A DNA stretch of 32,339 bases from a virus. Its lineage: Duplodnaviria > Heunggongvirae > Uroviricota > Caudoviricetes. The notes below the pieces were generated by a model that worked only from the letters and a program-made list of their open reading frames with translations, was not told the origin of the DNA and made no database searches. Below, piece after piece: positions 1,862 through 20,133 of this stretch. The stretch lies in the IMG/VR virus record IMGVR_UViG_2526164646_000008, positions 1 through 32,339 of that record; one strand, written 5' to 3'. Every line of letters starts with the position of its first letter. Within the stretch, counting starts at the first letter, position 1. The position numbers and the translations under genes were made by a program.

Positions 1862-3057
1862 ATGACCGAATCCAGCGATTACGAATCCGTCCAGGTCTTT
1901 ATCGGCGTTGATGTCGGTAAAGATACGCATCACGCTGTTGCCATTAATCGTTCAGGTAAACGCCTGTTCGATAAAGCATTACCCAACGACGAAAACAAAC
2001 TCAGGTCGCTAATATCTGACCTGAAACAACATGGTCAGATACTGCTGGTTGTTGATCAGCCAGCTACCATCGGTGCGTTACCTGTCGCCGTTGCCCGCTC
2101 AGAAGGAGTCCTTGTCGGATACCTCCCTGGACTGGCCATGCGCCGCATAGCCGACTTACACGCCGGTGAAGCTAAAACTGATGCTCGTGACGCTGCCATC
2201 ATTGCCGAAGCTGCCCGTACCTGCCTCACGCGCTACGCACGCTGAAACTGGCTGACGAGCAAATCGCCGAACTCTCCATGCTCTGCGGCTTCGATGATGA
2301 TCTTGCCGCACAGACAACGCAGGCCAGCAACCGTATCCGCGGCCTTCTGACCCAGATACATCCGGCACCGGAGCGCGTTCTCGGTCCGAGACTTGAGCAC
2401 CCGGCGGTACTCGATCTTCTCCAGCGATATCCCTCACCAGAAAAACTCGCTTCGCTGGGTGAGAAGAAGCTGGCAGCCCAGCTCTGCAAACTTGCGCCTC
2501 GTCTGGGTAAACGCCTTGCAGCAGACATAGCTCAGGCACTGGCCGACAAACCGTCGTCGTTCCCGGCACGAATGCCGCTGCCGTAGTACTGCCACGTCTG
2601 GCACTCCAGCTCATCACGCTGCGTAAGCAAAGAGACGAGGTGGCGCTTGAGGTAGAACAGCGAGTTCTTGCTCACCCTCTTTACCCGGTCCTGACCAGTA
2701 TGCCCGGAGTCGGTGTCAGGACCGCAGCCAGACTCCTCACCCGAGGTCGCCTGCCGCGCCTTCGCCTCTGCCGCACATCTCGCTGCTTATGCTGGCCTTG
2801 CGCCGGTAACTCGGCGATCCGGCTCGTCAATACGCGGTGAGCATCCCTCGCGACGGGGTAATAAAGCTCTCAAACGGGCGTTGTTCCTGTCGGCCTTCGC
2901 CGCGCTCAGGGATCCGCTCTCCAGGGCTTACTACACCCGCAAAATGAGTCAGGGAAAACGACACAATCAGGCGCTTATCGCCCTGGCGAGACGACGCTGC
3001 GACGTTCTGTTCGCCATGATGCGCGACGGGACTTTTTATACCCCGCAGGGGTCATAA
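1862..3057 (+). pseudogene. IS110-family (DEDD-type) transposase, broken into >=4 frames by frameshifts and an in-frame stop
   Basis: Track ORFs 1862..2245, 2278..2586, 2640..2840, 2713..3057 together read as one IS110-like transposase (VFIGVDVGKDTHH N-terminus; SMPGVGVRTAARLL motif) in different frames; element ends not determinable. Confidence 0.6.
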
Positions 3058-3756: not shown

Positions 3757-3831
<75 letters not shown>

Positions 3832-3834
3832 ATA

Positions 3835-3910
<76 letters not shown>

Positions 3911-3912
3911 GC

Positions 3913-3989
3913 TGGCCCACCACCGAGGACTCGAACCTCGGACCGTCAACTTAGAAGGTTGATGCTCTATCCGGATGAGCTAGTGGTGG
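3913..3989 (-). tRNA. tRNA-Arg (anticodon UCU), unusual C1:G72 acceptor pair
   Basis: Reverse complement CCACCACTAGCTCATCCGGATAGAGCATCAACCTTCTAAGTTGACGGTCCGAGGTTCGAGTCCTCGGTGGTGGGCCA; anticodon loop CTTCTAA; 1 nt from next tRNA. Confidence 0.65.
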
Positions 3990-3990
3990 T

Positions 3991-4066
3991 TGGTGGCCCT
4001 TGCTGGACTTGAACCAGCGACCTGGCGATTATGAGTCGCTCGCTCTCACCACTGAGCTAAAGGGCC
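3991..4066 (-). tRNA. tRNA with CAU anticodon, Ile2 (lysidine)-type, ileX/ileZ-like
   Basis: Reverse complement GGCCCTTTAGCTCAGTGGTGAGAGCGAGCGACTCATAATCGC...GGTTCAAGTCCAGCAAGGGCCACCA, near-identical architecture to E. coli ileX as recalled. Confidence 0.7.
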
Positions 4067-5426: not shown

Positions 5427-5490
5427 TGAGGTAGCCTGAGTTTAACGGACACTCCTTCCTGAAATAGAATGGCATCAGAAGGAGCTAATA

Positions 5491-5778
5491 ATGAGCAGAA
5501 AAACCCAACGTTACTCTAAATAGTTCAAAGCCGAAGCTGTCAGAACGGTTCTTGAAAATCAACTTTCGATCAGTGAAGGCGCTTCCCGATTATCCCTTCC
5601 TGAAGGCACTTTAGGACAATGGGTTACCGCCGCCAGAAAAGGGCTCGGTACTCCTGGTTCCCGCACGGTGGCTGAACTGGAATCTGAAATTCTGCAACTG
5701 CGTAAGGCGTTAAATGAAGCTCGCCTTGAGCGCGATATATTAAAAAAGCAACAGCGTATTTTGCACAGGAGTCGCTGA
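5491..5778 (+). pseudogene. IS600 orfA with premature stop at codon 11
   Basis: TAG at 5521..5523 (tactctaaaTAGttcaaagcc) where copy 2 has GAG (YSKEFKAEA). Confidence 0.75.
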
Positions 5779-5827
5779 AAAATACGCGTTAATCGAACAA
5801 TGGCGACAACAATTTCCCATTGAAGCG

Positions 5828-6646
5828 ATGTGTCAGGTATTTGGTGTATCCAGGAGCGGTTATTACAACTGGGTACAGCATGAACCCTCAGACAGAAAAC
5901 AAAGTGATGAGCGGCTAAAACTGGAGATTAAGGTGGCACATATCCGCACTCGCGAAACATATGGAACCCGGCGGCTCCAGACGGAGCTGGCAGAGAATGG
6001 CATCATCGTTGGTCGTGACCGACTGGCACGTCTTCGTAAGGAGCTGAGGCTACGCTGTAAGCAGAAACGCAAGTTCAGAGCGACTACGAACCCGAACCAC
6101 AATCTGCCAGTTGCGCCAAATCTGCTGAACCAGACGTTCGCTCCTACAGCACCAAATCAGGTCTGGGTGGCGGACCTGACGTATGTTGCCACACAGGAGG
6201 GATGGTTGTACCTCGCTGGCATCAAAGATGTTTATACGTGTGAAATTGTCGGCTACGCCATGGGAGAGCGCATGACAAAAGAGCTGACAGGTAAAGCCCT
6301 GTTTATGGCGCTCAGGAGCCAGCGCCCACCTGCCGGGCTAATCCACCACTCTGATCGAGGTTCACAGTACTGCGCATACGATTACCGGGTCATACAGGAG
6401 CAGTCTGGTCTGAAAACATCAATGTCGCGTAAAGGTAACTGTTACGACAACGCTCCGATGGAAAGCTTCTGGGGAACGCTGAAAAATGAGAGCCTGAGCC
6501 ACTATCGTTTTAATAACCGGGATGAAGCCATCTCAGTAATACGGGAATACATTGAGATTTTCTACAATCGTCAGCGTCGTCACTCTCGTCTGGGGAATAT
6601 CTCCCCGGCAGCCTTCAGGGAAAAATATCATCAGATGGCTGCTTAA
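5828..6646 (+). CDS. IS600 orfB transposase (DDE)
   Basis: 272-aa track ORF, identical to copy 3 orfB and 1 aa different from copy 2 orfB. Confidence 0.85.
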   Translation: MCQVFGVSRSGYYNWVQHEPSDRKQSDERLKLEIKVAHIRTRETYGTRRLQTELAENGIIVGRDRLARLRKELRLRCKQKRKFRATTNPNHNLPVAPNLLNQTFAPTAPNQVWVADLTYVATQEGWLYLAGIKDVYTCEIVGYAMGERMTKELTGKALFMALRSQRPPAGLIHHSDRGSQYCAYDYRVIQEQSGLKTSMSRKGNCYDNAPMESFWGTLKNESLSHYRFNNRDEAISVIREYIEIFYNRQRRHSRLGNISPAAFREKYHQMAA

Positions 6647-6688
6647 AAAAGAACAAATGGTAGTGTCCGCTATTGCCAGTACACCTCA

Positions 6689-9854: not shown

Positions 9855-10019
9855 ATGGGCAATGTGATTCAACTGGCTCCCAATGAATGGGTTTGTGAAA
9901 GCGTTCTAATCGCAATTACCGGGCTCAAACCAGGCACAATTCTTCGGACCCGGAAAGAATGCTGGATGGTTGGAAGAGAGTATATTCACGTATCACCAGA
10001 CGGTAATCCAAAGCCTTCT
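9855..10019 (+). pseudogene. Excisionase-like gene, 3' end removed by IS911
   Basis: MGNVIQLAPNEWVCESVLIAITGLKPGTILRTRKECWMVGREYIHVSPDGNPKPSE then IS911-derived codons; homologous to the xis-like ORF at 22577. Confidence 0.45.
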
Positions 10020-10026
10020 GAAGTGG

Positions 10027-11195
<1,169 letters not shown>

Positions 11196-11324
11196 TGGAG
11201 CACCTGTGTTGTTCTGAGGTGAGCATATCACCTCTGTTCAGGTGGCCAAATTCAGTGTGCCACTTCAAATCTTGCCAGAGCTAGTATTGCACTGTCTGGC
11301 ATACACAATCGTTCCAGTAATCAA

Positions 11325-11788: not shown

Positions 11789-11847
11789 ATGTTGATTGGT
11801 ACCTTTGGCGGCATCAGTTTCATTGCTGGCTGATGTCCGCCCTTTTT
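11789..11847 (+). ncRNA. dicF: DicF-like small RNA candidate with intrinsic terminator
   Basis: ttgattggtacctttggcggcatcagttt... resembles the 5' half of E. coli DicF (UUUCUGGUGACGUUUGGCGGUAUCAGUUUU) as recalled; ends in hairpin ggcgg-c-atcag/ctgat-gt-ccgcc (11807..11841) plus T5. Confidence 0.4.
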
Positions 11848-12143
11848 AAAGTGAATTTTGTGATGCGGTGAATGCGGCTGAGCGCACGCGGAACAGTTAA
11901 AAAGCGATTAGTTCCCACGTATCGGGTGGTTATGGGTTTCCCTGTATCCGGCGTTAATTGTTAACTGGTTAACGTCACCTGGAGGCACCAGGCACCGCAT
12001 CAACAAAGTTCACTTCGGTGATGAAAGGTAAGAGAAAATGTTGAATGTAGCTATTGAAAACCAGAACGGGTGGAATTATAGTGCATCTGCACCTCATAAA
12101 ACGGGGGCCGGGCGTGGAAACCCGAACGTTACTCGAGCGCATA

Positions 12144-12165
12144 GCCGCGCTGAAGCGGTTTTTTT
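12144..12165 (+). terminator. Short GC hairpin (ccgc-gctgaa-gcgg) followed by T7
   Basis: Seen directly; 4-bp stem, strong U-tract. Confidence 0.3.
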
Positions 12166-12967
12166 ATGCGTAATGCACAGCTCCATTCAAATTATGGTGG
12201 GATGTGCAGGGCAGTCGCAAGACTGGCCGGGTTCTCGAGTGACCGGTATTTCCACCCCTGTACGTCTCACCACCCTTATGGTCGTGGAAAACCTCGGTGG
12301 TGAGTTAATTAACTTATCACTCGAGGATGCCATCATGGCTACTATCCCTGCCCTTTCTCACCCTGACGTAACCATCGAAAACGGTCGCGCTGTCACTACG
12401 TCTGTTGCGGTTGCAGAGTTCTTCCACAAACGACACGACAATGTGTTACGTGCCATCGCAAATACTGAATGCTCACCTGAATTTAACGCCCTCAATTTTG
12501 AGGACGTCACCTACACCGACACCAAAGGCGAAAAACGCCCAATGTACCAAATCACCAAAAACGGCTTCGTTTTCCTGGTGATGGGCTTCACTGGGAAAAA
12601 AGCCGCTGCATTCAAAGAGGCCTACATCGCTGATGTTCGACCGCATGGAGGCAGAACTGCACCAGAATAATACCCCGTCCGCTGACAAGATGATTCCGGG
12701 TAACGGTCGCACTCTGGTTGTGCACTTCGACGAACACGGCAATATCAGATTCACCGAAACTGTTCCTGACGGTGCACTGGTCTGTACCCTGGATACTTTC
12801 CAGTTTTATCTGGAAAAACAGGGGTGGGCTCTTGTAAACCGGAGCGCAATTAAAAATATGACCGTAGAGCAGCTGCTAGACTGGCCCCCTGAATCTCCAG
12901 ACAACCAGTATCACTTATTTAAGTGATAGTCTTAATACTAGTTTTTAGACTAGTCATTGGAGAACAG

Positions 12968-13333
12968 ATGATTGATGTCTTAGGGCCGGAGAAACGCAGA
13001 CGGCGTACCACACAGGAAAAGATCGCAATTGTTCAGCAGAGCTTTGAACCGGGGATGACGGTCTCCCTCGTTGCCCGGCAACATGGTGTAGCAGCCAGCC
13101 AGCTATTTCTCTGGCGTAAGCAATACCAGGAAGGAAGTCTTACTGCTGTGGCCGCCGGAGAACAGGTTGTTCCTGCCTCTGAACTTGCTGCCGCCATGAA
13201 GCAGATTAAAGAACTCCAGCGCCTGCTCGGCAAGAAAACGATGGAAAATGAACTCCTCAAAGAAGCCGTTGAATATGGACGGGCAAAAAAGTGGATAGCG
13301 CACGCGCCCTTATTGCCCGGGGATGGGGAGTAA
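12968..13333 (+). CDS. insC: IS2 orfA (InsC)
   Basis: [56 protein letters not shown]... Confidence 0.85.
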
Positions 13334-14196
13334 GCTTAGTCAGCCGTTGTCTCCGGGTGTCGCGTGCGCAGTTGCACGTCATTCTCAGACGAACCGATGA
13401 CTGGATGGATGGCCGCCGCAGTCGTCACACTGATGATACGGATGTGCTTCTCCGTATACACCATGTTATCGGAGAGCTGCCCACGTATGGTTATCGTCGG
13501 GTATGGGCGCTGCTTCGCAGACAGGCAGAACTTGATGGTATGCCTGCGATCAATGCCAAACGTGTTTACCGGCTCATGCGCCAGAATGCGCTGTTGCTTG
13601 AGCGAAAACCTGCTGTACCGCCATCGAAACGGGCACATACAGGCAGAGTGGCCGTGAAAGAAAGCAATCAGCGATGGTGCTCTGACGGGTTCGAGTTCTG
13701 CTGTGATAACGGAGAGAGACTGCGTGTCACGTTCGCGCTGGACTGCTGTGATCGTGAGGCACTGCACTGGGCGGTGACTACCGGCGGCTTCAACAGTGAA
13801 ACAGTACAGGACGTCATGCTGGGAGCAGTGGAACGCCGCTTCGGCAACGATCTTCCGTCGTCTCCAGTGGAGTGGCTGACGGATAATGGTTCATGCTACC
13901 GGGATAATGAAACACGCCAGTTCGCCCGGATGTTGGGACTTGAACCGAAGAACACGGCGGTGCGGAGTCCGGAGAGTAACGGAATAGCAGAGAGCTTCGT
14001 GAAAACGATAAAGCGTGACTACATCAGTATCATGCCCAAACCAGACGGGTTAACGGCAGCAAAGAACCTTGCAGAGGCGTTCGAGCATTATAACGAATGG
14101 CATCCGCATAGTGCGCTGGGTTATCGCTCGCCACGGGAATATCTGCGGCAGCGGGCTTGTAATGGGTTAAGTGATAACAGATGTCTGGAAATATAG
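13291..14196 (+). CDS. insD: IS2 orfB (InsD transposase)
   Basis: 301-aa track ORF. Confidence 0.85.
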
Positions 14197-14272
14197 GGGC
14201 AAATCCAGCTGCTAAGTATTAAATAACTTTCCTGAGATTTCCTTTGTAAGACTGTTTATTAAGGAGGCTTCC

Positions 14273-14494
14273 ATGATTGCTCATCACTTCGGAACTGATG
14301 AAATACCACGTCAGTGTGTGACTCCTGGCGATTATGTTCTTCATGAAGGTCGGACATATATCGCCTCGGCAAACAATATTAAAAAGCGAAAACTTTATAT
14401 TCGTAGCCTGACTACAAAAACATGCATTTCTGACTGCATGATTAAAGTCTTCCTCGGTCGTGATGGTTTACCTGTAAAGGCGGAGTCATGGTAA
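14273..14494 (+). CDS. kilR: KilR-like small protein (73 aa; Rac-type FtsZ-inhibiting killing protein)
   Basis: Strong SD aaggagg 5 nt upstream; 73 aa as KilR; sits in kilR-ydaE-racC-recE order as in Rac prophage; identity from recollection and synteny. Confidence 0.5.
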
Positions 14495-14664
14495 TGACTA
14501 AGAAAATAAAATGTGCTTATCACCTTTGCAATAAAGAAATTGAAGAAAGCAAAATCATTACAAGACCACTTCATTTCATGCGTGGAGTTATACCAACGAC
14601 GGAAATGAAAAAATATTGTAGTGAAATCTGTGCCGAAAAAGACCAGATGGCACACGAACTTTAA
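14488..14664 (+). CDS. ydaE: YdaE-like zinc-ribbon protein (58 aa, two CxxC pairs)
   Basis: [17 protein letters not shown]...[17 protein letters not shown]; start overlaps kilR-like stop; below ORF-track size cutoff. Confidence 0.45.
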
Positions 14665-15039
14665 TTAACTGACTATCCGAAACTGAATTTATGCCAGCAA
14701 TGGCAGGGATTCGCTCAACCTTAATTAAGGAGAAAAACATGATTACCAGTTATGAAGCCACTGTTGTAACTACTGATGACATTGTTCACGAGGTTAATCT
14801 GGAAGGAAAGCGTATTGGCTACGTGATTAAGACAGAAAATAAAGAAACCCCATTCACTGTGGTTGATATCGACGGTCCATCAGGCAACGTTAAAACACTT
14901 AACGATGGTGTAAAAAAAATGTGTCTGGTGCACATAGGAAAGAATCTGCCCGCAGAAAAAAAAGCCGAATTTCTGGCAACTCTGGGTAATGCTGCCAACT
15001 TACTGATTTAGTGTATGATGGTGATTTTAAGGTGCTTGC

Positions 15040-15315
15040 GTGGCTTCCATTTCCATCAGATGTCCTTCCTGCTCCGCTACTGAAGGCGTGGTGCGTAACG
15101 GCAAAAGCACTGCCGGACATCAGCGCTATCTCTGCTCTCATTGCCGTAAAACATGGCAACTACAGTTCACTTACACCGCCTCTCAGCCCGGTACGCACCA
15201 GAAAATCATTGATATGGCCATGAATGGCGTCGGATGTCGCGCCAGTGCACGCATTATGGGCGTTGGCCTCAACACGGTTTTACGTCACTTAAAAAACTCA
15301 GGCCGCAGTCGGTAA
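15040..15315 (+). CDS. insA: IS1 InsA
   Basis: 91-aa track [43 protein letters not shown]... Confidence 0.85.
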
Positions 15316-15737
15316 CCTCGCGCATACAACCGGGCAGTGATGTGATTGTCTGCGCTGAAATGGACGAACATTGGGGCTACGTCGGTGCTAAATCACGTCA
15401 GCGCTGGCTGTTTTACGCGTATGACAGGATACGGAGGACGGTTGTGGCGCACGTCTTCGGTGAACGCACTCTGGCCACACTGGAGCGTCTTCTGAGCCTG
15501 CTGTCGGCCTTTGAGGTCGTGGTATGGATGACGGATGGCTGTCCGCTGTATGAATCACGCCTGAAGGGAAAGCTGCACGTTATCAGCAAGCGTTACACTC
15601 AGCACATTGAGCGACATAATCTGAATCTGAGACAACATCTGGCAAGGCTGGGACGGAAGTCACTGTCGTTCTCAAAATCGGTGGAGCTGCATGACAAGGT
15701 CATCGGGCATTATCTGAACATAAAACACTATCAGTAA
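15234..15737 (+). CDS. insB: IS1 InsB (InsAB' transposase made by frameshift)
   Basis: 167-aa track ORF. Confidence 0.85.
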
Positions 15738-15789
15738 GTTGGAGTCATTACCCAACTCTGATTGCAATGAAATTAAAAGGTGAAATCTG

Positions 15790-15819
15790 AAAAAAAGAAA
15801 GCCTGCACACTGTGCAGGC
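15790..15819 (-). terminator. Perfect palindrome gcctgcacactgtgcaggc with U-tract only on the minus strand
   Basis: 19-nt palindrome 15801..15819 preceded on the plus strand by aaaaaaagaaa, i.e. followed by TTTCTTTTTTT on the minus strand. Confidence 0.35.
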
Positions 15820-15889
15820 CTGAATGAAGAACCTGGGACATTTATTCATCACTCGCAGTAATTTTAATCTGAGTTGAGGTTAAAAAACA

Positions 15890-17314
15890 ATGAACACCGA
15901 TAAACAAGTTTACCCACTGTATTACGAAGCAAAAAATGACAAAGTAAGAAAACGTCTCGGTATTAAAGGCGGTTTTTACTGGGCTGAAGCGAAAAAATTA
16001 TCCATTGCCATCTCCCGTGGTGCTGTTGCGATTGACGATGCAGGCTACGATGAAGATGACTTTAAAAAACCTGTTCGCGTCAATTTGCCCGTTGTTGATG
16101 ACCTCCCGCCAGAAGGCGTATTTGATACGGAATTCTGCAACCGTTACGAAAAAGGCGGGGAAGATGGCATCACAATGGTATTTATCGCATCTTCTCCCTC
16201 TGTTCAGGACAAACCGGCCAGCACTGACAATACCAACGTCAACGGCGAAGACATGACAGAAATTGAGGAGAACATGCTCCTGCCAGTTTCCGGTCAGGAA
16301 CTGCCCATTCGCTGGCTTGCGCAACACGGCAGCGAAAAACCAGTAACGCACGTTTCACGCGACGAACTCCAGGCATTACACATTGCTCGGGATGAAGAAC
16401 TACCAGCTGTTACTGCCCTGGCTGTTTCCCACAAAACCAGCCTGCTCGATCCGCTGGAAATTCGCGATCTCCACAAACTGGTGCGTGATACTGACAGAGT
16501 TTTCCCTAATCCAGGCAATTCAAGCCTGGGGCTGATGACTGCTTTTTTCGAAGCATACATGGACGCAGACTACACCGATCGCGGTCTGCTGACAAAAGAG
16601 TGGATGAAAGGAAATCGTGTTTCACGCATCACGCGCACGGCTTCCGGCGCTAATGCTGGCGGCGGGAACCTCACCGATCGCGGCGAAGGTTTCGTTCACG
16701 ATCTGACGTCACTGGCGCGCGACGTAGCCACTGGCGTACTGGCTCGTTCAATGGACGTGGACATTTATAACCTTCATCCGGCACACGCTAAACGTGTCGA
16801 GGAAATTATCGCTGAAAATAAACCGCCCTTTTCTGTTTTCCGCGACAAATTCATCACCATGCCTGGCGGGATGGATTATTCCCGCGCCATCGTGGTTGCG
16901 TCAGTGAAAGAAGCACCGATTGGTATCGAGGTCATCCCCGCTCACGTCACTGAATATCTGAACAAGGTACTGACTGAAACCGATCATGCCAACCCTGATC
17001 CGGAAATCGTGGATATTGCCTGCGGTCGCTCCTCTGCCCCGATGCCGCAACGTGTAACAGAAGAAGGAAAACAGGATGATGAAGAAAAAACGCAGCCATC
17101 TGGCGCAATGGCAGATGAACAGGCAACGGCTGAAACAATGGAACCGGATGCAACTGAACATCATCAGAACACGCAGCCGCTGGATGCTCAGTCACAGGTA
17201 AATTCTGTTGATGAGAAATATCAGGAACTACGGGCAGAACTCCATGAAGCCCGGAAAAACATTCCGCCCAAAAATCCTGTCGATGCAGACAAATTACTGG
17301 CTGCCTTGAGGTAG
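15890..17314 (+). pseudogene. recE: RecE (exonuclease VIII)-like gene, N-terminal non-catalytic region only; 3' end removed by IS600
   Basis: 474-aa ORF with acidic, low-complexity stretches ([19 protein letters not shown]...) recalled from Rac RecE; stop TAG 17312..17314 lies inside an IS600 end remnant; native sequence ends at 17306. Confidence 0.5.
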
Positions 17315-17318
17315 CCTG
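17307..17318 (+). repeat. 12-nt IS600 left-end remnant (tgaggtagcctg) abutting the right end of IS600 copy 2
   Basis: Identical to the first 12 nt of the IS600 left end at 5427..5438. Confidence 0.7.
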
Positions 17319-17361
17319 TGAGGTGTACTGGCAATAGCGGACACTACCATTTGTTCTTTTT

Positions 17362-18180
17362 TTAAGCAGCCATCTGATGATATTTTTCCCTGAAGGCTGC
17401 CGGGGAGATATTCCCCAGACGAGAGTGACGACGCTGACGATTGTAGAAAATCTCAATGTATTCCCGTATTACTGAGGTGGCTTCATCCCGGTTATTAAAA
17501 CGATAGTGGCTCAGGCTCTCATTTTTCAGCGTTCCCCAGAAGCTTTCCATCGGAGCGTTGTCGTAACAGTTACCTTTACGCGACATTGATGTTTTCAGAC
17601 CAGACTGCTCCTGTATGACCCGGTAATCGTATGCGCAGTACTGTGAACCTCGATCAGAGTGGTGGATTAGCCCGGCAGGTGGGCGCTGGCTCCTGAGCGC
17701 CATAAACAGGGCTTTACCTGTCAGCTCTTTTGTCATGCGCTCTCCCATGGCGTAGCCGACAATTTCACACGTATAAACATCTTTGATGCCAGCGAGGTAC
17801 AACCATCCCTCCTGTGTGGCAACATACGTCAGGTCCGCCACCCAGACCTGATTTGGTGCTGTAGGAGCGAACGTCTGGTTCAGCAGATTTGGCGCAACTG
17901 GCAGATTGTGGTTCGGGTTCGTAGTCGCTCTGAACTTGCGTTTCTGCTTACAGCGTAGCCTCAGCTCCTTACGAAGACGTGCCAGTCGGTCACGACCAAC
18001 GATGATGCCATTCTCTGCCAGCTCCGTCTGGAGCCGCCGGGTTCCATATGTTTCGCGAGTGCGGATATGTGCCACCTTAATCTCCAGTTTTAGCCGCTCA
18101 TCACTTTGTTTTCTGTCTGAGGGTTCATGCTGTACCCAGTTGTAATAACCGCTCCTGGATACACCAAATACCTGACACAT
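17362..18180 (-). CDS. IS600 orfB transposase
   Basis: 272-aa track ORF. Confidence 0.85.
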   Translation of the reverse strand: MCQVFGVSRSGYYNWVQHEPSDRKQSDERLKLEIKVAHIRTRETYGTRRLQTELAENGIIVGRDRLARLRKELRLRCKQKRKFRATTNPNHNLPVAPNLLNQTFAPTAPNQVWVADLTYVATQEGWLYLAGIKDVYTCEIVGYAMGERMTKELTGKALFMALRSQRPPAGLIHHSDRGSQYCAYDYRVIQEQSGLKTSMSRKGNCYDNAPMESFWGTLKNESLSHYRFNNRDEATSVIREYIEIFYNRQRRHSRLGNISPAAFREKYHQMAA

Positions 18181-18229
18181 CGCTTCAATGGGAAATTGTT
18201 GTCGCCATTGTTCGATTAACGCGTATTTT

Positions 18230-18517
18230 TCAGCGACTCCTGTGCAAAATACGCTGTTGCTTTTTTAATATATCGCGCTCAAGGCGAGCTTCATTTAACG
18301 CCTTACGCAGTTGCAGAATTTCAGATTCCAGTTCAGCCACCGTGCGGGAACCAGGAGTACCGAGCCCTTTTCTGGCGGCGGTAACCCATTGTCCTAAAGT
18401 GCCTTCAGGAAGAGATAATCGGGAAGCGCCTTCACTGATCGAAAGTTGATTTTCAAGAACCGTTCTGACAGCTTCGGCTTTGAACTCTTTAGAGTAACGT
18501 TGGGTTTTTCTGCTCAT
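18230..18517 (-). CDS. IS600 orfA
   Basis: 95-aa track [27 protein letters not shown]... Confidence 0.85.
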
Positions 18518-18904
18518 TATTAGCTCCTTCTGATGCCATTCTATTTCAGGAAGGAGTGTCCGTTAAACTCAGGCTACCTCAGAGCGCTTATCCGATTTTT
18601 GATCGTATTGAAGAAATGGCATGGGCTCGTCACTACCAGCAGATCGTTCGTGAAGAAAAAGAAACGGAACTGGCGGACGACCTGGAAAAAGGTCTGCCTC
18701 AGCACCTGTTTGAATCGCTCTGCATCGACCATTTGCAACGCCACGGTGCCAATAAACAGGCAATCAGCCACGCATTTGATGATGATGTTGAGTTTCAGGA
18801 GCGCATGGCAGAACACATCCGGTACATGGCTGTGAAGTGGCACACTGAATTTGGCCACCTGAACAGAGGTGATATGCTCACCTCAGAACAACACAGGTGC
18901 TCCA

Positions 18905-20073
<1,169 letters not shown>

Positions 20074-20133
20074 CCACTTCACTGAAACCATTGCCCACCA
20101 CCAGGTTGATATTGATTTGGAGGACTAAAATCT

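Follow-up and report, generated by a model that had tools for sequence, protein, structure and literature searches.

We found that the joint at 17307–17319 of the window (the whole stretch of DNA analyzed here, 32,339 nucleotides) consists of the first 12 nucleotides of an IS600 left end, lodged within a recE-like gene of a Rac-like prophage, and of the right end of a full, inverted IS600 (copy 2, or element Y) that directly abuts them. We interpret this joint as a scar that very probably arose through strand transfer of an IS600 right end into a resident IS600 (element X) between its nucleotides 12 and 13, accompanied by loss of the intervening DNA.

The 12-nt tip, its native context and its spread

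Evaluating the orphan 12-mer (TGAGGTAGCCTG), we found it identical at 12 of 12 positions to nt 1–12 of the left ends of both full IS600 copies and beginning with the 5'-TG of the IS600 left inverted repeat (IRL), such that the + strand across 17300–17340 reads gctgcct, then TGAGGTAGCCTG, then TGAGGTGTACTGGCAATAGCGG. Three exact matches occur in the window, namely the orphan at 17307 (+), the left end of IS600 copy 1 at 5427 (+) and the left end of copy 2 at 18570–18581 (−), with 0.15 matches expected by chance even when one mismatch is allowed. On the + strand, the orphan and the right end of copy 2 both read outside-to-inside, and nt 13–1264 of X are gone, so that the window sequence bears out a preliminary description that had placed a 12-nt remnant against copy 2 with the rest of its element missing. 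That description would have been undone by the 12-mer occurring by chance in non-IS DNA; the other two exact matches are both IS600 left ends. Copy 2 is a full-length element with both terminal repeats and an orfA/orfB transposase (DDE) carrying HTH_Tnp_1, HTH_21 and rve domains, and measures 1263 bp in the window versus 1264 bp in 12 other genomes (Table 1).

Table 1. Features of the window, ordered by position, with strand and observations on each.
Feature	Position	Strand	Observations
IS600 copy 1 (IS600-1)	5427–6688	+	No target duplication; flank triplets TAT/CAA
IS911-A	10019–11267	−	No target duplication; joins the xis (excisionase) region of another prophage to the Rac-like region
IS2	12877–14207	+	GCTGC duplication
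IS1-1	14985–15752	+	CAACTCTG duplication; polymorphic, site empty in most S. flexneri loci
RecE-family (exonuclease VIII-like) gene, 5' part, Rac-like prophage	15890–17306	+	recE match to phage Rac-SA53 and others; Pfam Exonuc_VIII; collinear with FDAARGOS_943 and CFSAN029787
Orphan IS600 left inverted repeat, nt 1–12 (remnant of resident X)	17307–17318	+	Identity to IS600; absent from native recE; extends to nt 191 in L016
IS600 copy 2 (IS600-2, element Y), full length	17319–18581	−	Mapped ends: right end 17319, left end 18581
gam, 5' part	18582–18832	+	Begins at the G of the native ATG ('AT' lost); Gam matches
IS911-B	18833–20081	+	Simple insertion in gam; CTG duplication
gam 3' end and AAA-ATPase gene	20082–21262	+	Collinear with the native prophage
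IS629	21266–22571	−	No target duplication; over a 364-bp deletion that removes DUF1187 and the 5' end of xisR
IS1-2	22918–23685	−	No target duplication; on a 424-bp deletion within intR
IS600-3, partial (nt 317–1264)	31141–32088	−	Cut by IS1-3
IS1-3	32090 to window end		Third IS1; cuts IS600-3

As un-inserted references we used the near-identical Rac-like prophages of two EIEC-like E. coli genomes, FDAARGOS_943 and CFSAN029787, the latter prophage sitting beside ttcA. Homology to recE breaks exactly after 17306 in both of them as well as in phage Rac-SA53 and Shigella phage 75/02 Stx, and because it stops there so precisely the 12-mer represents foreign DNA starting at the IS600 terminus. Native recE genes continue after ...CTGGCTGCCT with ATCGCGG or CTCGCGG (for example ...GCTGCCT followed by CTCGCGG) and lack the 12-mer, which rules out its chance or native origin. 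Across 11804–24426 the window is collinear and co-oriented with the two reference prophages (Rha, recE', gam, AAA-ATPase, xis/int, ttcA), and relative to both of them exactly 503 bp of native DNA are absent at the focal joint with order and orientation kept. What is missing runs from the 3' end of recE' through the spacer into the gam start codon, whose first two bases (AT) are lost, such that the native ...CCAGTGAT before GAGCGC is replaced in the window by ...CCTCA before GAGCGC. The focal joint thus combines an exact IS terminus, a collinear flank and a missing interval, the configuration of an adjacent deletion, and the deletion that had been proposed here is borne out by the loss of these 503 bp and of the rest of X.

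In a prophage that had already decayed, the scar shortens the RecE-like protein and deprives gam of its start codon. The recE' reading frame ends at a TAG (17312–17314) within the IS600 tip, its last two codons and stop being IS-derived. A GTG-initiated ORF at 18556–18924 begins in the left end of IS600-2 and runs in frame into gam, and the gene calls of S. flexneri genomes include a predicted Gam-domain protein of 106 or 122 aa; from the reading frame, an IS-Gam fusion that replaces the lost start codon is possible. On the far side, native Rac-like homology ends within ttcA at 24426, beyond which lie a sitABCD-like metal ABC transporter cluster (~24.8–28.2 kb) and then a DUF4376 tail-fibre-assembly-like gene (28435–29058, −).

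Searching other genomes, we recovered the identical 12-nt joint in 12 other genome loci (ten complete genomes, mostly S. flexneri by record name, and two GTDB representatives) and in 3 IMG/VR contigs, with all 12 genome loci reading 12-mer, 1264-bp IS600 and GAGCGC in succession. The joint is present in every S. flexneri genome examined, and 865 blocks of the assembly collection list the shortened RecE protein. A search for an IRL tip followed within 0–30 nt by a right inverted repeat (IRR) returned the recE locus only, with 2 matches in genome_contigs and 3 in viral_contigs, and had no match in metagenome_contigs. Misassembly is common in IS-rich genomes, and the IS600 copies of this window carry 1-nt homopolymer differences, so that a chance match or an assembly artefact (chimeric IS copies or collapsed ones, the latter named by the preliminary description itself as what would overturn it) deserves weighing; however, the 12/12 match falls exactly at the break in recE homology, and the 12 other genome loci, like the 3 IMG/VR contigs, carry the identical joint, so that we give a chance match or such an artefact a negligible probability.

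Side observations on sequence quality concern several copies. Both full IS600 copies (5427–6688 and 17319–18581) have A6 rather than A7 at the slippery run at nt 310–316, copy 1 is additionally one A short at nt 1214–1220, and in the sitA region an alignment to another S. flexneri genome has two gaps of 1 nt. Such 1-nt differences are probably homopolymer miscalls in this assembly, but they could be real inactivating changes. Separately, in the two GTDB representatives (L004 4633–5425 and L005 3434–4226) the left-end-proximal 793 nt of the IS600 at this locus share only 94% identity with other copies (42 mismatches), which suggests that either gene conversion involving a diverged relative of IS600 took place or these assemblies are of low quality.

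A second allele and the origin of the scar

One IMG/VR contig, L016, reveals another state of the same locus, reading recE to ctgcct, then IS600 nt 1–191, then TGAGGTGTACTGG, the last being the right end of an inverted IS600 that is itself split by IS629. L016 shares with the window both the joint between recE and the IS600 left end and the joint between a left end and GAGCGC of gam, while the right end of Y meets X at nt 191/192 in L016 versus nt 12/13 in S. flexneri. Between L016 and the S. flexneri loci there are 4 mismatches and 2 gaps in 2172 nt, and since L016 differs in this way from all S. flexneri loci, which are almost identical to one another, we take it as a sister lineage. Together with a native recE that lacks the 12-mer, the continuation of X to nt 191 in L016 supports the proposed insertion into a resident IS end. 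Judging from these sequences, recE once held a resident IS600, X, into which entry took place at a different point in each of the two lineages; the 191-nt state may be the source of the 12-nt state, or the latter may have arisen independently out of a more complete ancestor.

Pattern searches for recE joined to an uninterrupted IS600 left end gave L016 as the single match in viral_contigs. Intact X at the recE joint was found neither in viral_contigs (where L016, with 191 nt, was all that appeared) nor in metagenomes, and no complete E. coli genome had an IS600 at this exact recE site; a complete X, or an X split around Y at nt 12, was likewise missing from the genomes, viral contigs and metagenomes searched. 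Two E. coli matches (H55 and H56) have, from their spans, an IS600 apparently a few hundred bp off within recE.

Bounded by two left-end tips in inverted orientation, the 12-mer and Y could in principle have moved together as a 1276-bp unit, with the 12-nt tip serving as a surrogate end. We regard this as highly improbable, as in L016 this recE joint leads into 191 nt of X, which places X at this site as a resident, and as the unit is flanked by no 3-bp duplication (CCT versus GAG) and 503 bp of its target are missing.

For the preferred reading, strand transfer into X with loss of the interval, we propose the following steps. An IS600 copy, X (+), would have inserted into the recE-like gene of the Rac-like prophage, and a second copy, Y, in inverted orientation, would have come to have its left end joined to the gam start codon, 503 bp downstream in the native phage. 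Strand transfer catalyzed by transposase would then have linked Y, by the exact terminus of its right end, to X at the nt 12/13 boundary, with loss of X nt 13–1264, of the 3' end of recE and of the first two bases (AT) of the gam start codon. What can be read directly from the DNA is the authentic IS end at the joint of X with recE, the exact termini of Y, the 503 bp missing with order kept, and the L016 joint at nt 191/192. We infer the order of events, since the full intermediate is found in no genome. Because the right repeat retains its exact last nucleotide in both alleles, the X–Y joints point to strand transfer rather than homologous or illegitimate recombination, as would be expected from the established chemistry of IS3-family DDE transposases.

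Several routes could produce such a joint. To the first we give about an even chance: a new IS600, arriving as a copy-out/paste-in circle, would nest into X in the orientation of Y, and homologous recombination between the two direct copies would then remove the interval. The nesting step occurs in nature, as intact inverted IS600-in-IS600 nests are seen in E. coli 97-3250 (X nt 1–722, inverted IS600, X nt 720–1264, with a TAC duplication of nt 720–722) and in plasmid p93_0495-1 (X nt 1–226, inverted IS600, X nt 224–273, with an ACT duplication of nt 224–226). These two show the 3-bp duplication and the flanking host halves of a simple nested insertion; in the window no target duplication surrounds the copy at 17319–18581 (CTG or CCT versus GAG), and its right flank is gam, not IS600. 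The second route, which we hold only tentatively, takes one step: the 3'-OH of the right end of Y would attack X on the same molecule, giving a transpositional adjacent deletion. Other routes together are less probable still. For IS3-family copy-out/paste-in elements, insertion followed by homologous recombination is taken as the usual way to deletions, and to our knowledge a one-step adjacent deletion by such an element has not been established biochemically. In favor of deletion stand a strain-specific loss from an IS3-family end at the same locus (locus L012) and the local deletions on which IS629 and IS1-2 also lie. That the 191-nt and 12-nt alleles represent repeated one-step, transposase-driven erosion by an IS3-family right end is unlikely in our judgment, and a nearby second copy in inverted orientation would possibly favor it.

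The positions at which IS600 is joined into IS600 are scattered (nt 12, 191, 226, 722 and ~787), and a hot spot at the repeat tip was rejected on this account. A further observation concerns two espP plasmids of STEC, p93_0495-1 and L020, which share a truncated IS600 (nt 1–273): a full inverted IS600 lies 101 bp downstream of the truncated copy in one and is nested at nt 226 in the other, which may reflect a local hop or independent insertion.

Other insertion sequences and the order of prophage modules

Mapping the insertion sequences by end-sequence searches and self-comparison of the window, we recovered the elements of the preliminary description and two more, IS600-3 and IS1-3. The earlier census of target duplications agrees with our flank comparisons, which showed those of IS2, IS1-1 and IS911-B to be intact and those of IS600-1, IS600-2, IS911-A, IS629 and IS1-2 to be missing, and self-comparison returned IS600-1/-2 and IS911-A/-B as the inverted pairs reported. 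At IS911-B and IS1-1 the flanks overlap by exactly the duplication and the sites are empty in other S. flexneri genomes, with a single CTG at the empty IS911-B site in three loci (L007, L013, L015). Two side observations are that IS1-3 cuts IS600-3 precisely within the A-run at the frameshift site of IS600, and that three non-native nucleotides (GAA, 21263–21265) separate the AAA-ATPase homology from the IS629 terminus and could represent filler or what is left of a previous flank.

Within the Rac-like stretch, the copies lacking duplications (IS600-2, IS629 and IS1-2) mark local deletions of 503, 364 and 424 bp, respectively, and not inversions. Differences at the right end of IS911-B among S. 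flexneri loci indicate that changes at IS3-family ends continue at this locus, since at 14193/14194 of L012 this end, exactly from which an 823-bp strain-specific loss starts, abuts window position 20905, and at 14193 of L011 it abuts unrelated phage DNA, i.e., is rearranged.

The preliminary description had further read the missing duplications and inverted pairs as IS-driven rearrangement in which recombination between copies shuffled the flanking phage modules. The insertion into a resident end and the deletion stand, and there are real discontinuities at IS600-1 and IS911-A; inversion or shuffling at the focal joint does not. Reciprocal recombination between the in-window inverted copies (IS600-1/-2 or IS911-A/-B) would draw on their forming inverted pairs, several of them without duplications, on the rearrangement at an IS911 end in L011, and on the IS600-1 and IS911-A flanks being non-contiguous in E. 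coli. Against this, comparison with FDAARGOS_943 and CFSAN029787 for the un-rearranged order showed the same order and orientation throughout 11804–24426, differing by deletions only, such that recE, gam and the AAA-ATPase gene flank the 17307 joint as in the un-inserted prophage. The triplets that flank IS600-1 (TAT/CAA) and IS600-2 (CTG or CCT/GAG) do not pair as reverse complements, and because its CTG duplication is intact, IS911-B, whose site is empty in other strains, is a simple insertion that cannot have exchanged with IS911-A. Homologous exchange, moreover, cannot yield a joint between a 12-nt tip and the exact end of a right repeat, and neither reciprocal flank duplications nor an inverted interval relative to the native order was found at the focal joint. 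We therefore consider module shuffling around the joint by such recombination very improbable.

True rearrangement joints in the window lie only at IS600-1 and IS911-A. The two flanks of IS600-1 (RusA side and SPFH side) are contiguous in 0 of 5426 E. coli genomes, as are those of IS911-A (0/5426), which in CFSAN029787 map to chromosome positions 36.6 kb and 4.71 Mb; left of IS911-A the window differs from ten S. flexneri genomes. In the left part of the window we also observed two adjacent ORFs at 1862–3057 that match the N- and C-terminal domains of IS110-family transposases (DEDD_Tnp_IS110, Transposase_20), which by their sequence look like a disrupted IS110-family element between tail/head genes (Z, FI) and a tRNA cluster. 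The four tRNA genes of this cluster (3757–4066, −; Gly-tcc, Thr-tgt, Arg-tct, Met-cat) adjoin the Q and RusA genes, and their counterparts in E. coli relatives are annotated Val, Thr, Arg and Ile.

Meaning of the scar and comparison with known systems

We see no evident function for the joint and interpret it as a fixed scar in a decayed Rac-like prophage of S. flexneri. Its meaning lies in that a vanished element is recognizable from a 12-nt IS tip, and in that, in this Shigella prophage remnant, IS copies without duplications mostly mark small local deletions rather than inversions. The 12-nt joint is a stable marker in the S. flexneri loci examined, and the 191-nt allele marks a sister lineage. 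With its shared outer joints, this allele pair (191 nt and 12 nt) could be used to test whether an IS3-family end deletes adjacent DNA directly; if true, one-step erosion would amount to a direct adjacent-deletion activity of a copy-out/paste-in IS.

Shigella reference chromosomes carry 229–348 IS insertions, and much of the IS expansion of S. flexneri predates the diversification of the species (PMC7373316); with so high and early an IS load, fixation of an IS that has inserted into another IS is to be expected. In IS911 and IS30, inverted-repeat targeting places an incoming end beside a resident end and gives a tip-to-tip IRL–IRR junction (PMC9333248). A canonical insertion of this type, in which the transposase recognizes the resident end and directs the incoming element there, might be suspected here, given that the point of entry falls inside the left inverted repeat of an IS600 already resident at the site, and given the dual target specificity documented for IS911 and IS30 (PMC9333248). 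No new tip-to-tip IRL–IRR junction was found at 17307–17319, however, where the right-end tip lies 12 nt inside the left repeat and points in the same direction; the other IS600 nests, at nt 191, 226, 722 and ~787, show no hot spot at the tip, and a nest at nt 12/13 occurs in one context only in the genome and viral scans and in none in the metagenome scan. We consider this explanation quite improbable.

The scar is instead an instance of two known things, a nested IS insertion and an IS-associated adjacent deletion. Like the nested same-IS insertions of IS-rich Shigella and E. coli, of which E. coli 97-3250 and p93_0495-1 hold intact examples, it has one IS600 entering another in inverted orientation; unlike them, the window keeps 12 nt of the host element, has no duplication, and has lost the distal part of X together with 503 bp. 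With IS-associated adjacent deletions it shares the exact right-end terminus, the collinear flank and the gap, as well as a pair of alleles that end at different points (nt 12 and nt 191) and the company of IS911-B in L012, IS629 and IS1-2, although in the window the deletion stops within a second IS600. Inverted-repeat targeting by IS911 and IS30 resembles the scar in having a resident inverted repeat of the same IS as target and differs from it in its tip-to-tip junction, whereas the window has an insertion 12 nt inside the repeat with its ends in direct orientation.
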